Below are positions 1 to 15,584 of a DNA stretch of 17,115 nt, one piece after another. The first letter of the stretch is position 1. Every line of letters starts with the position of its first letter. Origin of the DNA: a virus (Duplodnaviria > Heunggongvirae > Uroviricota > Caudoviricetes); IMG/VR virus record IMGVR_UViG_2529292883_000003, positions 1 through 17,115 of that record. The stretch is one strand, 5' to 3'. The notes beneath the pieces are model-generated. The model searched no databases and had not been told where the DNA came from. It saw nothing but the letters and a program-made list of their open reading frames with translations. A program made the position numbers and the translations under genes.

Positions 1-405
1 CATATCCCATATGTAGTCGCCATTCAGCGCTGCCGCCCCCGGCGCACTGATTGCTGTTCCATCGACAAGACGCAATCTCTTTCCGCTTGTACAACCCGTA
101 ACTGCGGCGCGTACAGCAAGTGTTTGTGCGGCAAGTATGCCAAACCAGTCGGCGGCATTCCGCAGCCGCTTCAGGAGAGCCACGTCAGATAATGTTGCAA
201 CGTCATGGAGCTGAGCCCATGCAGTGACTTCACGTAATGACATCCCCCCGGGGCCGTAAGCCAGCCCCAGACGTAGCAGAGTTGCAGCATCACGAATTTC
301 GCGGCGGCGGGTTAGAGCCCCGGCATTACGTGCCGAAGTATCCAGTTCTTCGGGCTTACCAATATGGGCCAGAATTGCTGACCAGTTATCGTGAGAGTAA
401 TTCAT
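1..405 (-). CDS. insL: IS186 transposase, N-terminal ~135 codons (partial; apparent frameshift at the C5 run 36-40)
   Basis: Minus-strand translation from ATG 405-403 gives MNYSHDNWSAILAHIGKPEELDTSARNAGALTRRREIRDAATLLRLGLAYGPGGMSLREVTAWAQLHDVATLSDVALLKRLRNAADWFGILAAQTLAVRAAVTGCTSGKRLRLVDGTAISAP..., matching the IS186 transposase as I remember it. Not in the ORF track because the frame runs off the window edge. Confidence 0.85.
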   Translation of the reverse strand, partial: MNYSHDNWSAILAHIGKPEELDTSARNAGALTRRREIRDAATLLRLGLAYGPGGMSLREVTAWAQLHDVATLSDVALLKRLRNAADWFGILAAQTLAVRAAVTGCTSGKRLRLVDGTAISAPGAAALNGDYIWDM

Positions 406-460
406 CGGCACGTTAAATCATATCAGGCGTAATACCACAACCCTTAAGTTAGCGCTTATG
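1..460 (-). mobile_element. IS186 (IS4 family) end, continues beyond window start
   Basis: Transposase N-terminus recognised (see CDS 1-405), ~55 nt untranslated leader, and the minus-strand sequence CATAAGCGCTAACTTAAGGGTTG (plus 438-460) that I recall as the IS186 terminal repeat. Outer boundary at 460 is approximate and rests on memory of the IR. Confidence 0.7.
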
Positions 461-482
461 GGATTTCTCCCCGCTGGTCCTC

Positions 483-638
483 TTACTCCCCAAGTTCGTA
501 AGCTGTGAAGACAGCGACCTCCGTCTGGTCGGTTCGGATTCGTACCTCGCAGAGGTCTTTCCTCGTTACCAGTACCGTCACTATAACGATTAAACAGATG
601 ACGATCAGGGTGATTAACATCGCCTTTTGCTGCTTCAT
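483..638 (-). CDS. hok: Hok/Gef family type I toxin (HokD/RelF-like), 51 aa
   Basis: MKQQKAMLITLIVICLIVIVTVLVTRKDLCEVRIRTDQTEVAVFTAYELGE: one hydrophobic helix followed by the conserved RKxLCE..R....EVA.F.AYE Hok/Gef signature. Start ATG at 638-636, stop TAA at 485-483. Confidence 0.85.
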   Translation of the reverse strand: MKQQKAMLITLIVICLIVIVTVLVTRKDLCEVRIRTDQTEVAVFTAYELGE

Positions 639-695
639 AGCCCGCTTCTTCTTGCCTTTCAGCACGTAAGAGACTAACCTACGTTTGTAAGGCAT
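483..695 (-). CDS. mok: Mok: N-terminally extended frame sharing the hok stop, 70 aa
   Basis: ORF-track 70-aa frame (MPYKRRLVSYVLKGKKKRA + Hok) starting 57 nt upstream of hok in the same frame, as for chromosomal mok/hok pairs. Confidence 0.6.
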   Translation of the reverse strand: MPYKRRLVSYVLKGKKKRAMKQQKAMLITLIVICLIVIVTVLVTRKDLCEVRIRTDQTEVAVFTAYELGE

Positions 696-758
696 AGATT
701 GGGCCCCAGATTAATGTTAAGCCTCTTGCCGGATGCGTAATATCAACTGGGGTTTTTT
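687..758 (+). ncRNA. sok: putative Sok antisense RNA
   Basis: Plus-strand segment antisense to the mok start region, ending in CCCCAG...CTGGGG followed by TTTTTT (753-758), which looks like an intrinsic terminator. The 5' end is placed by analogy with known hok/sok loci, not seen directly. Confidence 0.35.
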
Positions 759-1241
759 CTATCTGCCTTTGATTTTCATGCCCAAGGCAGATAGCCTCAA
801 GCCCCCGCAGCCATACTATTTAACCCCCGTTACCTCGCCAATATGAAATCAATCAGAAAGGCGATCCATAAGAACAATAGCAAGACAATAAATTGCCACC
901 ACAGCCGCAATAGCCAACGCACACTTGAGAACCAGCACGACAACCTCCTGTATTGGACGTGCACCTGCCCTGATAAATATGAGGCTGTCTCGTCAGTGAT
1001 TCAATACAACTATTGGGTATAGTTTCTGTGATTTTGTTCTGTAGAAATGGAACACAACAACCAGTCACCACCAGCACTTCTTTAAATACGCTAAGTCCGA
1101 CGCAAGCTAACCTTCTAGTCCGCTTTGAGCGAGGAGCGGACCTGACATTGGGGTATGTCAATTTATGGGAGCAGGTCAGGGGCATTAATGCCCCCATATG
1201 GAATAAGTTTCACCTTGACATTAATAATGCTCTTGGGACAA

Positions 1242-2987
1242 TCAAAAACTTTGCTTTAGTGGTACTTCTCTTGACATGTGGATACCATCTTTTGAACGCC
1301 TGCGCTCTTCAAAATAGATAGCTAATGATAAATAGATTATTGAGTTTCTAGCTAATCCAATGAGTTGCATGAGCCTTGATTCAAATTGGCTTATTGGTAT
1401 TAATAGAGAGTGGGAAGATAGTTTTTCTTTTTCATAGATCTTTGATTTTAGATCTGTAAGTCTTAAACTCATCTTATTAACACCATCTTCGAGTTGTTGC
1501 GCTAAACAATTATCCCCATCTTTTTTTGCTTGCTTCATTTTTAATTTTTCATCCCGGATTTTATCTGGTAGTACATTAACTTCTTCTTGGATCTTTCTAA
1601 ATTCACCATCATTATAAGTATTATATGATGTTGCAAGTTCATAGCCAAAATCATCAACTATTTTTAATGAACGATGTTCCATGGCATTTCTAATCTCTGC
1701 AAATGCCACTGCATTTGGATCTAACCACTTTGTTGCTGAATCAGAGTCACCAACTTTACGGATATCTTTTAATATATAGAATAAAGCGTGAATGAAATGA
1801 TTGTCGCTATCTTTCAGCTTTTTATGTGGTTTCCATTTAGTATTATTACTTGTAAAGTCACGGAATAAATTATCTATACTGATTATTTTGTCATGTTTCA
1901 GATCGTTCAAATCAAAGAAGCGACTAATTAAATATGCTACTTTATCAAAAATTGAATATACTATTCTGAATGCTGACTTATACTGAGCAATCTTCAAGTT
2001 ATTAATTGAGTAAGTCATATCCTCAACGTGTTGATATGTTGAGTTGAATATATGAGGGTTATCATCAGGTATATCTTTTGAAGAAAAAATCAAGTACCGA
2101 GCATAACAGTAATCATTTTTTAATTCATCATAATTACCGTGATAAGATAATTCTTCAGACATGGTGAGAGAACTATTAAGCGATTGAACGAATGAGGGGA
2201 ATTCGAAAACATCCTGATAAGTAATCGGGTACTCGCAAGCATCATTCAAATCATTAAGAAAGAGTCTTTTACTAGCGCACCATTCTAAATAGTTTTTCTG
2301 TTTTCTACATGTGGTTTTTTCAGTGTATTCTTTAAAGTAATCGAAGTCCGATGTTTCGAATAACTCCTCGAACCATTTTTTAAAGTTGAATAATTTGCCG
2401 CCTTTCTCAAGTGGCACTCTTTGTTCAGGATATAGTTGATCAATATTCTCAAAACCTTTTTTCACAAGTTCATAAGCGATATAGTAATGATATTCTGAAT
2501 GTCCATTATCATAAAGTGAAAGCCCAAGAAAAATTTCATTATTGGCTTTTGCTATAATTGCAACGAGATTATTATCTATAGAAATAGCTTTATCATAGTG
2601 GGGAATGCAACATAACGTTCTACCTTGTGATGAAAGGCGATTAGCTAAATTTGTCTCAATCATAGACCTAAGACTATTATATGCATGAGTATTATTATCA
2701 TGTTCTCTCCAGTCTACTTTAGGTAGCGCATGTAAAGCTTTCCTGTAAAAGATGACCGATTTCATCAAATCATCTGAATACCACTCAGTTTTACGTGTTT
2801 CATAAAGTACAGAGTAACAATTTCCTAAGCAGTAAAGATAATGAGCCTCGTCTAATTGGTGAGTAAAGGTGAAATCCCGTTCTGTAAAACTCTCTATTAA
2901 TGAAGATAAAGAAACGTGATCACCTTTGATGATGTATTCATCCGCACGTTTACTAAACTCATCAAGTTTATCTTTTTCCAATAACAA
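1242..2987 (-). CDS. hypothetical protein, 581 aa, no family recognised (island cargo)
   Basis: Long uninterrupted minus-strand ORF in AT-rich DNA. TTG start at 2987-2985 sits 5 nt after a perfect AAGGAG (plus 2993-2998 is CTCCTT). No in-frame ATG nearby. Contains an R-x4-H motif (AEIRNAMEHRS) and TPR-like helices; both are weak motif-level hints. Confidence 0.6.
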   Translation of the reverse strand: MLLEKDKLDEFSKRADEYIIKGDHVSLSSLIESFTERDFTFTHQLDEAHYLYCLGNCYSVLYETRKTEWYSDDLMKSVIFYRKALHALPKVDWREHDNNTHAYNSLRSMIETNLANRLSSQGRTLCCIPHYDKAISIDNNLVAIIAKANNEIFLGLSLYDNGHSEYHYYIAYELVKKGFENIDQLYPEQRVPLEKGGKLFNFKKWFEELFETSDFDYFKEYTEKTTCRKQKNYLEWCASKRLFLNDLNDACEYPITYQDVFEFPSFVQSLNSSLTMSEELSYHGNYDELKNDYCYARYLIFSSKDIPDDNPHIFNSTYQHVEDMTYSINNLKIAQYKSAFRIVYSIFDKVAYLISRFFDLNDLKHDKIISIDNLFRDFTSNNTKWKPHKKLKDSDNHFIHALFYILKDIRKVGDSDSATKWLDPNAVAFAEIRNAMEHRSLKIVDDFGYELATSYNTYNDGEFRKIQEEVNVLPDKIRDEKLKMKQAKKDGDNCLAQQLEDGVNKMSLRLTDLKSKIYEKEKLSSHSLLIPISQFESRLMQLIGLARNSIIYLSLAIYFEERRRSKDGIHMSREVPLKQSF

Positions 2988-3212
2988 AGTGACTCCTTAA
3001 CTGTTCATACGAACTGAATGACAAGCTTCGATTTAAAACTAAACATATAAATGTACTATTTAATTATTTATTATATGTGGATTTGGTCGATAATGCTGAT
3101 CTAGTATTTAAGTTTAGGAGCATAAAAAGTGATCTACTCCTCACAATTTAACATAGCGCATGGGTTCAACTTCCGCTTCTGGCACAGGGCTGCTGTTGCA
3201 GCACTGACAACC

Positions 3213-3686
3213 TTAGACTTCAATCGATTCAGAGATCTCTAACGCATCATCGACTTCAATGCCCAGATAACGGACTGTGCTTTCCAGTTTCCTATGGCCC
3301 AACAGAAGTTGGATCACCCAAAGATTCTTGGTTTTCTTGTAGATCAGGTAAGGTTTTGTTCTTCTCATGGAGTGTGTGCTGTAAAGCGAAGCTTCGAGAC
3401 CAAGCTTTTCTACCCACCCATGAAAAATTCGGCTGTATTGCCGGGTTGATATGTGCCGGTTCGTTCCGATCCGAGACCGAAACAAGAAGTCTTTACTGTG
3501 CAAATTGCCAAGCTTTATCAATGCAGCAACAGCTTCTCTTGTCCCTTTGGTTATCTCAAATTGCACAGGGCTACCGATTTTCTGTTGCAGCACCATTACT
3601 CTGCTTGAAGCCGAGCTGCCATATGCAACATCAGATACTTTGAGGTTCACCAGATCACAGCCTCGTAGCTTACTGTCTAAGACCAT
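3213..3686 (-). pseudogene. small tyrosine recombinase (integrase family) remnant, N-terminally truncated
   Basis: 157-aa ORF with box I arginine (KLRGCDLVNLKVSDV) and the C-terminal HSMRRT...LLGHRKLESTVRY catalytic signature (R, HxxR, Y). The same frame stays open upstream to 3803 but is broken by TGA at 3746-3744, with no start codon upstream; only ~6 residues precede box I. Confidence 0.55.
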
Positions 3687-4017
3687 GTTGAACTGAGCTA
3701 AATCACGCGTTTTACCTTCCAGTTCAAGCCGGATTCGGCTCCCTCAGATATGAGATATCTGGAGTTGTCTTTTTTGGCCTATGATACGGTCTTTGTTCCA
3801 CTGTTACATGTTCATAATCAAATCTCCTGCAATGCTGGAGATTTGAGTACGGTTGTCCCTTATGAGCGAGTATTGGACATTGAGTTACTTGTATCAGGGG
3901 TGGTCAAAATATTGGCACTTAGCCATAAAGGTATTTACATCAATGATTTATGATCTTTCCTTAGCAAGATTGCTACTTTTTTGTGAAGTATGTTCATGTC
4001 AATAGTAGGTAATTAAA

Positions 4018-4047
4018 TTTACAAAATCGCGAATTAATGGTTATATA
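4018..4047 (+). promoter_or_regulatory. putative sigma70 promoter for the plus-strand island gene
   Basis: TTTACA (4018-4023), 17-nt spacer, TTATAT/TATATA (4041-4047), about 45 nt upstream of ATG 4090. By-eye match only. Confidence 0.3.
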
Positions 4048-4089
4048 TCCCCTATGGCTTGTTTTTTTAATACGAGGAATCAAACGGAT

Positions 4090-4413
4090 ATGGATAATAA
4101 TATTCTATTTATTTCATCAATTGAGCGGTTTAATGATTTCGAAGAGGTTGTTAGACGCTTTTTACAGCGAATGTTTAATGCAGATGCTTATATTACAAAT
4201 GGCCCTTATGACGGAGGCAAGGACGTCGTTTACTCAGTAAGAGGTCGTGAAATAAGAGAGGTAATACAGGTATCTATTATAAAAAAAGGTTTAGAAGATA
4301 AACTTGAAGAAGACTTAATCAAAACAGATGATTTAATTAAAAAATATAATTACCCTCCTGTATTGAATTTTTTTGGAGCCACAAAATATCTGAAAGCAAG
4401 CTTGAAGTTTTAA
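4090..4413 (+). CDS. Mrr-like (restriction-endonuclease fold) N-terminal ORF, 107 aa, probably the 5' part of a frame-disrupted gene
   Basis: MDNNILFISSIERFNDFEEVVRRFLQRMFNADAYITNGPYDGGKDVVYSVRGREIREVIQVSIIKKG... has the DGGxD core typical of Mrr-type PD-(D/E)xK nucleases. The expected Q-x-K lysine is not obvious (IQVS). GAGGAA lies 12 nt upstream of ATG 4090. The ORF-track start at 4054 is an in-frame extension. Confidence 0.5.
   Translation: MDNNILFISSIERFNDFEEVVRRFLQRMFNADAYITNGPYDGGKDVVYSVRGREIREVIQVSIIKKGLEDKLEEDLIKTDDLIKKYNYPPVLNFFGATKYLKASLKF
4368..4374 (+). repeat. T7 homopolymer at the frame junction between ORF 4090-4413 and ORF 4560-6359
   Basis: The downstream frame is open from 4350 (after TAA 4347-4349); the upstream frame closes at 4411-4413. 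The T7 run is the only homopolymer in the 4350-4410 overlap and fits the X XXY YYZ slippery pattern (T TTT TTT) in the upstream frame. Confidence 0.5.
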
Positions 4414-4559
4414 AAAGCAATGCCAGAAAAAATTATGGGATAACCCTCGAGTTTTATGACGCAAATAGAATATCTCAAAAAATCACCAATGATTATCCGG
4501 AGATATTAACCTTTCTTCTTGAGGAAGTTCACAATTATCAATCCTCTAAAAAGGATGAG

Positions 4560-6359
4560 TTGGACATAAAAGAAATAGCATTTTACGAATATCTGGTGTT
4601 AAGTAAAGATGCTGCCAATTTAAAGAATGTAATTATTGATTCATACATAGTTTCATTACTTACAGGTCAAGGGAAGTCAGAGCATGATTTAATCAATGAA
4701 ACCCAAATTCTTGGGGTACACAATGAAACTCTTAAAAATAGATTGTATCTTTTAAAGCGAGATAATCGAATTATCCTTGATGGAGATTTATACAGTCTGT
4801 CTGAGGTTGAAAGTAAGAGAATCAGGAATCTTGAGTTAAAAGAAATAGCCAAAAGGAATGAGGTTTTAACAATAATTGGTAATGCGACCTCAAAATACTT
4901 TAGTGAAAATATATCCACCGAGGTTCTTGACCTAATTAAGGAGGCTTATGCTGAGTCGGTCAATCTACAGCTTAATGAATTAAACTTCGAATCCCCAAGA
5001 AATCAAATTGTTAAAGGAATTATTAAACAACTGGAAAAATTGATAACTGAAAAAGGAAAAATAAACAACTCATTGTCTTCAAAATTAGCTAATGAGCTTG
5101 TTGAGTTATCTGGGAGAAATGAATATCTTTCAGACTATTGCTCATCAAGGCTATGCATAACTCTATTAAATCAAAAGAAACTTGAAAGATATATTGACAA
5201 TAAAACGTTTTTTTTATACCTAGATGCCCCAGTATTGATTCCATATCTTGTTGCATTAAGATACGATAAAATTTCTAACAGTGAAAAATCGATAAGCACT
5301 GTTAAAACGTTAAAGAAAATAGTATTTAACCTTAAAAACAGACACATTCGTGTAACCCAAGAACATCTTGAAGAAACAGTACGACATTTATTAAATGGAA
5401 TGAAAATTAGTTCTTTTGCCAATGATGAATTAGTTAGGAAGATAGGTAATTCTAAAAACGTATTTTTTAATACATATATAAATATTAAAAAAAGCAAACC
5501 TAGTAGTTACAATTTCGAAAATTTTTTAGAAGATTTTATTGGCTATGAAGATACATCTGGCTCTATCGATGCAAAGTTTTATAAACTAATTCGTTCAGTC
5601 TCTCAGTATTTAAATCTAAATAGAATTGAAGTTATTTCAACCTCAGTTTATCAGGAAGATAGAATCATTGAGGAAGTTGCCAGGAAGTTTTCTAGGCAAA
5701 TATCTGGTCCAAAAAAAAGAAATCCACGAACTATTAATAATGATATTTATGCTGCATTAACCTTATCTGATGACAGCATACACTGCGATGAAAAGGGAGT
5801 CGGTCAAATCCCTATGCTAATTACATGGGATGCAACTCAGCACACACTCAGGAATATAGTAAGACAAAAAGATAAATATAAAGAATGGTTGGTTTACACT
5901 CCCCAAAGAGCAATTGAAAGACTTTCAATGTTAGAAATGAAAATTGAGAGCTCCGCAATTAAAGATGGTGTTTTAGCAATTATTGATGAGGATTATTTCT
6001 TCAAGGAAAACGATTCAAATTTAATCGATACTCTGGCATTGCTAGTGAAAGATGATTCCCCTGACGCTGGCGCATTAACAACTTTGATAAATAAACTATC
6101 GCAAAGGGTAACCGAGGAGTCTTTAGATTCTCAAGATATTGAAAAAGAAGCATTCAATACTTTAAACGAGATTTTAGTATTTACTTACACTGAGTTTAAA
6201 GATAATTTTAGCCAGGTAAAAATTGTTTTCAGTGATGAAAAATATACCGACTCAATCTTTGAGATACTAACCTCAACACTTAAGCGACCTTTCGATGATT
6301 CTTCTAGAATAGAGTATAAAAATAAAATAGACGAAATAATTTCAGTTCACTTTGGTTGA
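4560..6359 (+). CDS. hypothetical protein, 599 aa as called (TTG start); likely C-terminal part of a ~755-aa nuclease-domain fusion
   Basis: Long ORF in AT-rich DNA. Its frame has no ATG, GTG or TTG between 4350 and the TTG at 4560, and no internal Met for ~275 codons. Weak AAGGA 4 nt before the TTG. No family recognised. Confidence 0.55.
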   Translation: MDIKEIAFYEYLVLSKDAANLKNVIIDSYIVSLLTGQGKSEHDLINETQILGVHNETLKNRLYLLKRDNRIILDGDLYSLSEVESKRIRNLELKEIAKRNEVLTIIGNATSKYFSENISTEVLDLIKEAYAESVNLQLNELNFESPRNQIVKGIIKQLEKLITEKGKINNSLSSKLANELVELSGRNEYLSDYCSSRLCITLLNQKKLERYIDNKTFFLYLDAPVLIPYLVALRYDKISNSEKSISTVKTLKKIVFNLKNRHIRVTQEHLEETVRHLLNGMKISSFANDELVRKIGNSKNVFFNTYINIKKSKPSSYNFENFLEDFIGYEDTSGSIDAKFYKLIRSVSQYLNLNRIEVISTSVYQEDRIIEEVARKFSRQISGPKKRNPRTINNDIYAALTLSDDSIHCDEKGVGQIPMLITWDATQHTLRNIVRQKDKYKEWLVYTPQRAIERLSMLEMKIESSAIKDGVLAIIDEDYFFKENDSNLIDTLALLVKDDSPDAGALTTLINKLSQRVTEESLDSQDIEKEAFNTLNEILVFTYTEFKDNFSQVKIVFSDEKYTDSIFEILTSTLKRPFDDSSRIEYKNKIDEIISVHFG

Positions 6360-6519
6360 CTGTTTGGGGAGAGGGTTCTCCCCAATTAAAGAACTTATTA
6401 ACAATATCGATAAAGTTGTGAACTGTTCCCCATGGATTGATGCAGATAGGTGCTATCAACATCCGCCTTTGGCACAAAGCGGACAACCACGCTAGCTCTA
6501 CCGACATGGCTTTTCCCAT
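6304..6519 (-). CDS. hypothetical small ORF immediately downstream of ydaV (ydaW position), C-terminus runs into the island boundary
   Basis: 71-aa ORF-track frame (MGKAMSVELAWLSALCQRRMLIAPICINPWGTVHNFIDIVNK...). The first ~45 codons lie in normal-GC DNA, the tail reads through the boundary hairpin. No convincing SD. Confidence 0.25.
   Translation of the reverse strand: MGKAMSVELAWLSALCQRRMLIAPICINPWGTVHNFIDIVNKFFNWGEPSPQTVNQSELKLFRLFYFYTLF
6364..6385 (+). terminator. hairpin just after the 599-aa ORF stop (possible terminator / island boundary)
   Basis: TTGGGGAGA-GGGT-TCTCCCCAA: 9-bp stem with 4-nt loop, 5 nt after TGA 6357-6359. No U-tract follows on either strand, so terminator function is uncertain. 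Confidence 0.3.
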
Positions 6520-15187: not shown

Positions 15188-15382
15188 ATGAGATATGACA
15201 ATGTTAAACCATGTCCATTTTGTGGTTGTCCATCAGTAACGGTGAAAGCCATTTCAGGATATTACCGAGCGAAGTGTAACGGATGCGAATCCCGAACCGG
15301 TTATGGTGGAAGTGAAAAAGAAGCACTCGAAAGATGGAATAAACGAACCACTGGAAATAATAATGGAGGTGTTCATGTATAA
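15188..15382 (+). CDS. ralR: restriction alleviation protein Lar/RalR, 64 aa
   Basis: MRYDNVKPCPFCGCPSVTVKAISGYYRAKCNGCESRTGYGGSEKEALERWNKRTTGNNNGGVHV, Cys-rich. Confidence 0.8.
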   Translation: MRYDNVKPCPFCGCPSVTVKAISGYYRAKCNGCESRTGYGGSEKEALERWNKRTTGNNNGGVHV

Positions 15383-15584
15383 AATTACCGCCACTATTGA
15401 AAAGGAAGGTGGCACTCCTACTAACTGGACAAGATATTCAAAATCTAAACTAACGAAATCAGAATGCGAAAAAATGCTCTCAGGTAAAAAAGAAGCAGGC
15501 GTTTCCAGAGAGCAGAAAGTAAAACTGATAAATTTTAATTGCGAGAAACTTCAGTCCTCGAGAATTGCATTGTATTCAAATTAA
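15375..15584 (+). CDS. ydaC: Rac prophage protein YdaC, 69 aa
   Basis: MYKITATIEKEGGTPTNWTRYSKSKLTKSECEKMLSGKKEAG...; ATG overlaps the ralR 3' end. Confidence 0.7.
   Translation: MYKITATIEKEGGTPTNWTRYSKSKLTKSECEKMLSGKKEAGVSREQKVKLINFNCEKLQSSRIALYSN

Follow-up and report, generated by a model that had tools for sequence, protein, structure and literature searches.

The window analyzed here, meaning the whole 17,115-nucleotide stretch of viral DNA, begins within an IS186 element that ends shortly past the stop codon of a hok toxin gene, itself part of a hok/mok/sok type I locus (Table 1). The locus forms part of a Rac-like prophage that has its integration site at ttcA. By sequence comparison, the toxin is nearest to HokD and the DNA of the locus nearest to hokW of lambdoid phages.

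Table 1. Positions within the window of the hok/mok/sok features and of the adjoining IS186 end.
Feature	Position	Strand	Basis or remark
IS186/IS421 (IS4 family), left part	1..460	- (transposase direction)	runs past the left edge of the window
IS186 transposase gene insL, N-terminal part	1..405 (ATG 405-403)	-	co-directional with hok
IS186 23-bp terminal inverted repeat, CAACCCTTAAGTTAGCGCTTATG	438..460		identical to the two ends of K-12 IS186A and IS186B
One copy of the target-site duplication, GGATTTCTCC	461-470		complete IS copies in D9 and PCP06101
Kept half of the IS186 target GGGG(N6)CCCC	461..472		NWU_3 empty site GGGGATTTCTCCCC
Remaining hok 3' UTR, 22 nt: 5' arm and loop of the terminal hairpin (GCGGGGAGAAAUCC...)	461..482	-	empty-site comparison
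hok toxin gene, 51 aa, intact, MKQQKAMLITLIVICLIVIVTVLVTRKDLCEVRIRTDQTEVAVFTAYELGE	483..638	-	Pfam PF01848, PHROG 251
mok, 70-codon in-frame leader ORF ending at the hok stop	483..695	-	ORF list
hok mRNA leader, +1 (806) to hok AUG	633..806	-	Rfam RF01794
Putative Sok promoter	652..680	+	-35 TTGCCT (652-657), -10 TAACCT (675-680)
Sok antisense RNA gene, predicted	~687..758	+	homology to sokW/sokC, fold
ucb	~750-759	-	within leader
tac	~795-806	-	within leader
Putative hok promoter	813..841	-	-35 TTGGCG (841-836), -10 TAGTAT (818-813)

The hok/mok/sok Locus and the IS186 End

A preliminary description of this DNA had designated the locus a hok/mok/sok type I system, and the designation is upheld by the combination of a PF01848 toxin, an in-frame mok, an RF01794 leader, and a candidate Sok gene positionally homologous to sokW and sokC. 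Specifically, Hok matches the Pfam family HOK_GEF with E=7.8e-19 and 67.5 bits (cut-off 22) and PHROG 251, "MokW-like host killing", with E=9e-29, and 45 of its 51 residues are identical to those in what we take to be the sequence of K-12 HokD; in an NCBIfam search, matches to Hok models fell under the model cut-offs. The arrangement of mok and hok is the same as that of the annotated mokC/hokC of K-12 and mokW/hokW of phage 933W, by analogy with which the two reading frames may be translationally coupled. A 29-aa ORF upstream of hok has no match in PHROGs or Pfam.

The leader matches RF01794 on the hok strand with 91.7 bits (gathering score 59; E=8e-20). Mapping against hok paralogs, as proposed in the preliminary description, placed tac and ucb within the leader and located fbi in the IS-free allele; the leader also contains the Sok target. 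When folded alone, the leader is predicted to form a tac-ucb stem-loop, like those of hokC, 933W, and Evi. A placement of Sok on the minus strand, taken from the Rfam match named "sok", was rejected, as this 174-nt model spans the region from the hok +1 to the AUG.

The Sok gene is predicted on the opposite strand, where it aligns position for position (687-757) with the annotated sokW of 933W and has the same start as K-12 sokC. Its predicted RNA opens with an unpaired 5' tail that is complementary to the start region of mok, continues into a long hairpin at 704-752, and ends in a U run at 753-758. The candidate antisense terminator suggested previously is borne out by the sequence, in which CCCCAG (704-709) pairs with CUGGGG (747-752) ahead of UUUUUU; the 76-nt candidate RNA has a predicted folding energy of -25.7 kcal/mol and z = -3.1, a value equaled by 0 of 200 shuffled sequences.

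A consensus promoter scan of positions 400-1000 called no promoter, and the hok and Sok promoters are therefore placed solely by homology. The putative hok promoter, with 8 of 12 consensus positions when read by eye, corresponds in position to that of K-12 hokC, in which TATAAT precedes the same +1 G by 6 nt. The putative Sok promoter is weak (7 of 12 positions, likewise read by eye); its -35 hexamer is conserved among hok paralogs, and its spacing is identical to that preceding the annotated start of K-12 sokC. A terminator scan of the same 400-1000 interval identified one terminator-like site, at 914-895 on the minus strand within a small ORF.

Comparison with K-12 IS186A and IS186B places the last base of the insertion element at position 460. 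Throughout 1-460, all aligned bases are identical to IS186B except for a single 1-nt deletion near 41-42, and strains PCP06101 and PCP06102 carry complete 1339-bp IS186 copies with a 120-nt junction 100% identical to that of the window. The deletion, which could be either a true frameshift or a homopolymer sequencing error, shifts the insL frame after approximately codon 121, such that the translation follows K-12 InsL as far as ...AISAPG and diverges afterwards, the gene then leaving the window. A Pfam search with the N-terminal InsL piece present in the window returned no match. That hok and the IS186 transposase gene are co-directional is an observation beyond those of the preliminary description. 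Chance explains none of the matches by which IS186, hok, mok, and Sok were recognized.

The Insertion Point Coincides with the IS186 Target Motif

The IS186 end had been estimated to lie about 22 bp past the hok stop, and exactly 22 nt (461-482) separate base 460 from the stop codon (483-485). The empty site is available in strain NWU_3, which carries the same prophage without the IS and differs from the window at one of 540 bases across 461-1000. At the insertion point NWU_3 reads GGGGATTTCTCCCC, which fits the published IS186 target, 5'-GGGG(N6/N7)CCCC (PMC6925257), and 24 kb of the NWU_3 locus contain no other G4N6-7C4 site. In strains D9 and PCP06101, complete IS186 copies at the same site are flanked on both sides by GGATTTCTCC, a 10-bp duplication in line with the roughly 10-12 bp characteristic of IS186; this duplication is read from those two strains, whose 120-nt IS-hok junctions are 99-100% identical to that of the window, as the second junction of the window's own copy lies outside the window. 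The insertion point is accounted for by IS186 target preference, and selection need not be invoked.

In the hok mRNA the target motif forms the GC-rich terminal hairpin, located 9-22 nt past the stop codon, a correspondence that adds to what the preliminary description had reported. As the insertion falls within this hairpin, the stem protecting the processed, active mRNA is damaged in addition to the more distal fold-back region.

Loss of the hok 3' End

The fold-back region had been predicted to be missing, and comparison with the empty site confirms that it is: fbi lies 49-60 nt past the hok stop in the IS-free allele, and a search across the window for the 36-nt segment that bears it found this segment absent. 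Where a full-length hok 3' UTR was sought, at 460-483, just 22 nt remain. When empty-site transcripts from three paralogs were folded, the minimum free energy structure of each paired nucleotides 1-12 of the 5' end with a conserved CUCAACGCASCC element at this same distance from the stop (49-60 nt); in the allele of the window, fbi and the 5' end pair with a mean probability of 0.80. The terminal hairpin is altered as well. In the empty site, GCGGGGAGAAAUCCCCGC is predicted to form a 7-bp stem of -15.2 kcal/mol, versus a predicted -8.8 kcal/mol for the hairpin of the window, a composite in which AGCG/CGCU closes over GGG/CCC. The insertion has removed fbi from the transcription unit and has replaced the 3' arm of the hairpin with the IS end.

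We consider there to be a strong probability that the window holds a phage-type hok/mok/sok locus in which IS186 entered its preferred target, the terminal hairpin, and thereby disarmed the locus as a stable-mRNA killer. Under such a mechanism, hok transcripts would run on into IS186 in the direction of the transposase gene, and the closed 5'-3' (tac/fbi) structure, which normally stabilizes the full-length mRNA and keeps it from being translated or recognized by Sok, would no longer form. With the strong 3' stem gone, the processed, active mRNA would be unprotected from 3' exonucleases. A long-lived reservoir of toxin mRNA would never accumulate, those transcripts that could be translated would be met by constitutive Sok, and neither post-segregational nor abortive killing would be expected, even as the Hok ORF, mok, the leader, and the Sok gene remain intact. 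The functional consequences are inferred from this structure, and the most likely state of the locus is that of a disarmed killer system retaining its toxin ORF and Sok gene.

Studies of K-12 gef (hokC), which carries the same lesion, bear upon this conclusion in two ways. IS186 is thought to disrupt fbi and mRNA processing at that locus, and the gene reportedly continues to be transcribed and to be controlled by its antisense RNA (PMC3562002); "disarmed" is therefore not equivalent to silent. The K-12 gef mRNA reportedly ends approximately 200 bp into IS186 with antisense control kept (PMC3562002), and this raises an alternative in which the insertion is functionally neutral, transcription ending within IS186, the IS end providing a substitute 3' structure, and the Sok-controlled toxin continuing to work. 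The intactness of hok, mok, the leader, and the Sok gene would fit such a scenario, as would the partial rebuilding of a hairpin by the IS inverted repeat and the toxicity of chromosomal Hok homologs upon overexpression (bioRxiv 10.1101/2025.08.07.668861). Against it stand the loss of fbi from the transcript and the sensitivity of the terminal stem in R1 hok, in which single substitutions breaking a C-G pair suffice to abolish both the truncated, active mRNA and toxicity (PMC9841398), whereas here the entire 3' arm has been replaced. Moreover, even IS-free chromosomal hok loci are reportedly without post-segregational killing (bioRxiv 10.1101/2025.08.07.668861). A surrogate for fbi was also sought within IS186 by folding read-through transcripts, and no specific alternative partner for tac was predicted: tac paired with IS sequence at 0-0.62 and with ucb at 0.02-0.52, depending upon the transcript length assumed. 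Because the predicted partners of the 5' end vary in this manner, thermodynamic modeling cannot name a dominant conformation. We regard a neutral insertion as rather unlikely and favor disarming of the locus.

The locus may have been attenuated already before IS186 arrived. Sequence comparison of the IS-free allele of this lineage points to two uncompensated mismatches in the tac/fbi helix and, relative to the phage copies, to a weaker hok Shine-Dalgarno sequence (GAAG vs GGAG) and a degenerate terminator.

Comparison with Characterized hok Loci

The preliminary description noted that several chromosomal hok loci of K-12 carry IS elements close by, and IS186 indeed occupies the homologous position at both hokC and hokE. 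At hokC (gef)/mokC/sokC, IS186A lies in the homologous G4N6C4 hairpin, GGGGATCACTCCCC, with a 10-bp duplication, 19 nt past the stop in the K-12 annotation as compared with 22 nt in the window; hok, mok, and sok are intact and fbi is displaced, as in the window. The two loci differ in that hokC is a chromosomal backbone locus (dnaJ-nhaA) and the window locus resides in a prophage, in the opposite orientation of IS186A, which is convergent with hokC, in the toxins, of which only 37 of 50 residues are identical, and in the Sok hairpin, which is 17 nt shorter in K-12. At hokE/sokE, IS186B has the same orientation as in the window, with hok and insL co-directional, and on the IS side the two junctions have the same sequence through the inverted repeat. 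The hokE target is GGGGATTACTCCCC, 18 nt past the stop in the K-12 annotation; this locus is chromosomal, and its toxin is very divergent, with 16 of 50 residues identical to those of the window Hok.

The hokW/mokW/sokW loci of 933W, Evi, Tritos, mEp460, and "phage Rac" 442/2 represent the same phage-borne hok lineage, with 88-92% DNA identity to the window locus. These phage copies have an intact tac, 3' hairpin, fbi (CCUCAACGCACCC), and terminator, and no IS. The tac sequence is GGGGGC in the window lineage and GGGUGC in the phage copies, and fbi is GCAGCC in the IS-free relatives NWU_3 and D9 and GCACCC in the phage copies. These tac/fbi differences were considered as evidence of decay or of selection and were rejected as such, given that the two changes are non-compensatory and that overall divergence is approximately 8%.

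[quoted passage not shown] R1 Hok, in what we take to be its sequence, shares approximately 22 of 52 residues with the window Hok, and the R1 3' hairpin, which we take to be GGG-N6-CCC, is not of the G4N6C4 form. The systems share one architecture and one regulatory logic, in which hok translation is coupled to that of mok, the mRNA switches by means of tac, ucb, and fbi, a 3' stem gives protection, and Sok acts on the start region of mok, and mutations in R1 show the 3' stem to be essential (PMC9841398).

Recurrence of IS186 at hok

In addition to hokC and hokE of K-12, IS186 is found at the homologous position in at least two prophage alleles of the hokD/hokW type, another prophage hokD among them, and in plasmid hok copies, and in both orientations; the window's own hok allele also occurs with IS186 in the opposite orientation. 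Among 5,426 complete E. coli genomes, an IS186-hok junction is present in the window orientation in at least 940 and in the opposite orientation in 828, for a prevalence of between 17% and 33%, counts that include clonal inheritance and are hence inflated. The reason that IS186 occurs repeatedly beside hok in chromosomes, prophages, and plasmids is that its target motif is matched by the GC-rich hairpin protecting the hok mRNA.

The frequency of these junctions could also be taken to suggest that the association is selected, either as a means by which the host disarms hok or because the IS uses the hok promoter for its transposase. Consistent with such selection, approximately 49 records of the window's allele are occupied compared with 109 empty genomes, and the terminator scan found no terminator-like site from the hok stop to the insL start. 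A perfect IS186 target, the sole one in 24 kb, is nevertheless sufficient to explain recurrence, and the inflation of the genome counts weakens the argument from frequency. Both orientations occur at the window's allele (8 vs 41 records) and at hokC, and co-direction with hok is therefore not required; the transposase of the window is, in addition, frameshifted. We judge a selected association to be distinctly unlikely as the explanation for the insertion and retain target preference in its place.

It is a separate and broader proposition that the association has, beyond target preference, consequences that are themselves under selection, namely disarming of hok, placement of insL downstream of the hok promoter, and gene conversion. 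This too seems unlikely. Were it true, dispersed IS-plus-hok repeats would promote gene conversion among paralogs, an example being strain HS-01, in which a Rac-type hok lies beside IS186 at the hokC locus, and in one of the two orientations insL would come to lie behind the hok promoter.

The Prophage Cargo Island

From the position of hok next to a cargo island, the preliminary description suggested that toxin locus and island had been acquired together. The proximity is real: hok lies approximately 600 bp from an LA2681-type HEPN gene (1242-2987), at the edge of the variable region. Homology to genomes with other cargo continues through hok, however, and ends at approximately 1137, and in other genomes the same hok allele (98-99% identical) adjoins at least four further cargo sets, all unrelated, including TPR + DUF262, SLATT + SMODS, NACHT, and a P-loop ATPase. 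Between hok and the cargo lies a conserved spacer (821-1137), which is present without hok in SW071611, and hok and spacer together form a module in the free lambdoid phages Evi, Tritos, and mEp460. In a large survey, moreover, hok was enriched in prophages and not near defence systems (bioRxiv 10.1101/2025.08.07.668861). Joint acquisition is, in light of these data, highly improbable. PADLOC analysis of the cargo ORFs gave one marginal match, to PDC-S02 (E=9.4e-4), for a 119-aa ORF at 4054-4413; the remaining cargo ORFs and Hok were without a PADLOC match.

Implications

The window locus is another case of the long-known IS186 lesion of K-12 hokC and hokE, and the finding is in this respect correct but ordinary. 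The interruption of both K-12 loci by IS elements was reportedly known already to Pedersen and Gerdes in 1999 (cited in PMC3562002). Mention of IS186 was not found in the most recent large survey of hok loci (bioRxiv 10.1101/2025.08.07.668861), and the open-access literature on IS150 at hokA yielded no useful statement. A phylogeny-aware census of IS186-hok junctions would be a small but new contribution.

An intact hok ORF beside an IS186 end probably marks a disarmed locus, and those engaged in annotation, or in studies of prophage toxin-antitoxin or defence systems, should check the 3' end of hok before counting a module as functional. For the family as a whole, the terminal hairpin of the hok mRNA may represent a common landing pad for IS186.

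Organization of the hok locus

The window begins within an insertion sequence, beside which lies a hok ORF identified by matches to Pfam HOK_GEF (E=7.8e-19) and PHROG 251, 'MokW-like host killing' (E=9e-29), and extended in frame by mok, the same arrangement as that annotated for mokC/hokC of K-12 and mokW/hokW of phage 933W. The encoded Hok shares 45 of 51 residues with K-12 HokD. An Rfam match (RF01794) was considered as the antisense RNA and rejected, as it covers the leader of the hok mRNA, from +1 through the hok AUG. The Sok gene was placed by its homology to annotated counterparts, and the candidate 76-nt RNA is predicted to fold at -25.7 kcal/mol (z = -3.1). The in-frame mok and the opposite-strand antisense terminator named in the preliminary description are thus both borne out, as are the remaining details of what it observed. 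The hok and Sok promoters were located by homology alone; in our reading their hexamers are weakly consensus-like, and a consensus scan made no call at either. Close to the Hok C-terminus, a Tyr codon UAC followed by G is conserved (495-503, minus strand; ...GCUUACGAA...), the sequence context at which hokB reportedly undergoes TadA-dependent A-to-I editing that turns Tyr into Cys; for hokC, hokD, and hokE such editing has been proposed (bioRxiv 10.1101/2025.08.07.668861).

Features of the hok locus and its prophage surroundings (window coordinates unless a comparison locus, L003 or L007, is named)
Feature	Position	Strand	Remarks
IS186 terminal inverted repeat, 23 bp	438-460		exact; CAACCCTTAAGTTAGCGCTTATG
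insL, IS186 transposase gene	ATG 405-403, continuing past left edge	minus	
hok ORF, 51 codons	stop codon 483-485	minus	stop 22 nt right of IS186 end
mok, 70 codons	in-frame extension of hok upstream to ATG at 695	minus	
hok mRNA leader, +1 to hok AUG	633-806	minus	Rfam RF01794, 91.7 bits (gathering score 59)
Sok gene	~687 to 757-762	plus	position-for-position homology with annotated sokW (933W) and sokC (K-12)
Sok 5' tail	over mok start	plus	single-stranded
Sok long hairpin	704-752	plus	
Sok U run	753-758	plus	
tac	795-806		U4 to G (GGGGGC vs phage GGGUGC)
ucb	750-759		G to A vs phage consensus
hok Shine-Dalgarno	643-651		GAAG vs phage GGAG
fbi	L003 3964-3975		C to G (GCAGCC vs phage GCACCC)
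Terminator after fbi			degenerate in this hok lineage vs phage copies
29-aa ORF	849-938	minus	MLVLKCALAIAAVVAIYCLAIVLMDRLSD; unannotated
Variable cargo	~1138-6490		LA2681-type HEPN protein, integrase fragment, unknown ORFs
LA2681-type HEPN protein, 581 aa			Pfam E=5e-32; cargo region listed as 1242-6490
Tyrosine-integrase fragment	3213-3686		
PCP06101 hok remnant	L007 6083-6190		window 483-588; incoming cargo P-loop ATPase, Sll1717 family
RalA antitoxin RNA	15381-15559	minus	Rfam RF02694, 225 bits; overlaps 93-codon ORF
93-codon ORF	15381-15559	minus	

Insertion of IS186 at a preferred target

Compared with K-12 IS186B, all aligned bases of positions 1-460 are identical except for a single 1-nt deletion near 41-42, and the exact inverted repeat confirms the expected element end ~22 bp past the hok stop. 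The deletion, which lies in a C/G run of insL and is apparent against both K-12 IS186B and the copy in strain PCP06101, shifts the transposase frame after ~codon 121 and may either truly inactivate the gene or reflect a sequencing error in a homopolymer; at hok loci elsewhere (2013C-4991, p276M), IS421 likewise carries annotated frameshifts.

In three complete genomes (NWU_1, NWU_3, and NWU_4) this Rac-like prophage and its cargo are present but lack the IS. The NWU_3 copy differs from window positions 461-1000 at 1 base and reads GGGGATTTCTCCCC at the insertion point, the sole G4N6-7C4 site in the 24 kb of the NWU_3 locus that were scanned and a fit to the published preferred IS186 target, 5'-GGGG(N6/N7)CCCC (PMC6925257). 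This site also holds complete IS186 copies of 1339 bp, bordered by a 10-bp duplication, GGATTTCTCC; the copy in PCP06101 is oriented as in the window and that in strain D9 oppositely. Read on the hok strand, the target forms a hairpin, GCGGGGAGAAAUCCCCGC, beginning 9 nt past the hok stop, with a predicted fold of -15.2 kcal/mol at the empty site. In the window the IS186 end takes the place of the hairpin's 3' arm and is predicted to partly rebuild a weaker hairpin (best composite fold -8.8 kcal/mol).

Loss of the 3' fold-back element

Empty-site transcripts were reconstructed for three paralogs, namely the window allele, the prophage hokD allele of 2013C-4991, and K-12 hokC, the last by in-silico excision of the IS. 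In the MFE structures of all three, the first 11-12 nt (tac, GGGKGCUUGAGG) pair with a conserved element, CUCAACGCASCC, located 49-60 nt past the hok stop; the mean pairing probability is 0.80 for the empty-site window allele. In hok copies from phages (933W, Evi, and 'phage Rac' 442/2) the element is likewise present, with an intrinsic terminator behind it. It is the fold-back inhibition (fbi) element of hok loci, known from plasmid R1 (PMC9841398). In the window allele fbi has been moved beyond the far side of IS186, and no copy was found within the whole 17-kb window. A full-length hok 3' UTR between 460 and 483 was looked for and is absent, and the original interpretation, that the insertion removed the 3' fold-back region, therefore stands.

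The hok lineage of the window, IS-free members included, departs from the phage consensus at several regulatory positions (see table). These changes are non-compensatory, and at ~8% overall divergence they do not clearly exceed drift; judged from such comparisons, the IS-free allele may have been attenuated before IS186 inserted.

Likely consequences for toxin production

In R1, the helix formed by tac and fbi locks the full-length hok mRNA in a closed and stable state in which it is neither translated nor reached by Sok; the active form is released by slow 3' trimming up to a GC-rich stem, and breaking one C-G pair of this stem by a single substitution abolishes both truncated mRNA and toxicity (PMC9841398). 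The window hok transcript has lost fbi plus half of the GC-rich stem. A scan of the interval from the hok stop to insL found no terminator-like site, so that transcripts should continue into IS186. Under these circumstances a reservoir of stable toxin mRNA would not accumulate, and Sok would encounter any translatable hok RNA. The structures predicted for such read-through RNAs vary with the transcript length assumed. The same reading is accepted for K-12 gef/hokC, in which IS186 is thought to disrupt fbi and processing, and mRNA is still produced and still antisense-regulated (PMC3562002). We have high confidence in the overall description of the locus; more specifically, hok is probably functionally disarmed.

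Position of hok within the prophage

The window represents a Rac-type prophage at ttcA, with ydaTUV, kilR, recET, ralR and RalA RNA, xisR, and intR. Within its cargo, a 756-aa ORF of NWU_3 appears split (4054-4413 and 4560-6359), and PADLOC returned a single marginal match (PDC-S02, E=9.4e-4, at 4054-4413). Homology with genomes carrying other cargo (TPR plus DUF262; SLATT plus SMODS; NACHT; P-loop ATPase) spans hok and a conserved spacer to ~1137 and restarts at ~6491. The spacer is present without hok in SW071611, the free phages Evi, Tritos, and mEp460 carry the hok and spacer module, and, according to a recent survey, hok is over-represented in prophages without being enriched near defence systems (bioRxiv 10.1101/2025.08.07.668861). 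On these grounds hok counts as part of the phage backbone, bordering a hot spot for cargo and lying outside the window's own cargo, and the proposal that it was acquired with the cargo island is not upheld, since hok and spacer are shared across different cargo sets and free phages. The limit of cargo exchange varies and can encroach on hok: in PCP06101 a cargo swap ending inside the gene deleted its 5' half, leaving the 3' two-thirds of the ORF beside the same IS186 junction.

The prophage holds a second type I toxin-antitoxin pair, comprising RalA RNA and a 93-codon ORF that occupies the position of annotated ralR in related prophages. Separately, a hydrophobic 29-aa ORF lies directly upstream of, and co-directional with, hok; it begins with GTG, and AGGAGG is located 5 nt ahead of this start. 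Six loci carry the ORF intact, with changes that are mostly synonymous or conservative, and it is found where hok is absent (comparison locus L004) as well as in the phages Evi, Tritos, mEp460, and HannyBb; within the upstream region 939-1060, positions 965-1025 are identical in all six loci. Pfam and PHROG searches with this ORF gave no match. In its modelled MFE structure, GACAGCCUC pairs with the Shine-Dalgarno region (fold z-score only -0.8), an arrangement reminiscent of type I toxin mRNAs.

Recurrence of IS186 at hok loci

The preliminary description mentioned IS elements close to K-12 hok genes, and the K-12 annotation indeed places IS186 at the homologous hairpin of both hokC (target GGGGATCACTCCCC, 19 nt from the stop) and hokE (target GGGGATTACTCCCC, 18 nt from the stop), in opposite and same orientation, respectively, relative to the window. 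When 120-nt junction probes (60 nt of IS and 60 nt of hok flank) were searched in 5,426 complete E. coli genomes, the window orientation was found in 940 and the opposite orientation in 828, a union of between 17% and 33% of genomes, with junctions spanning hokC, several prophage hokD-type alleles, and plasmid hok copies. For the window allele, 8 records in the same and 41 in the opposite orientation, against 109 genomes with an empty site, establish at least two independent insertions and ~30% occupancy. Target preference alone is sufficient to explain this recurrence; a need for hok-driven transposase expression is argued against by the occurrence of both orientations.

In E. coli HS-01 (NZ_CP172817.1, 5000-5860 of locus L011), the chromosomal hokC position has the order dnaJ-IS186-hok-nhaA. 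The IS-proximal ~320-350 bp, hok ORF included, are of Rac/hokD type, with hokC type towards nhaA, and the IS-hok junction matches the D9 junction at 100% identity; by sequence comparison, this mosaic resembles the product of gene conversion between hok paralogs beside IS186.

The window thus holds a further prophage hokD/hokW-type case of the lesion already described at K-12 hokC and hokE, and the only mildly new aspect is how frequent and widespread the IS186-hok association is, together with by-products such as the HS-01 mosaic at hokC.
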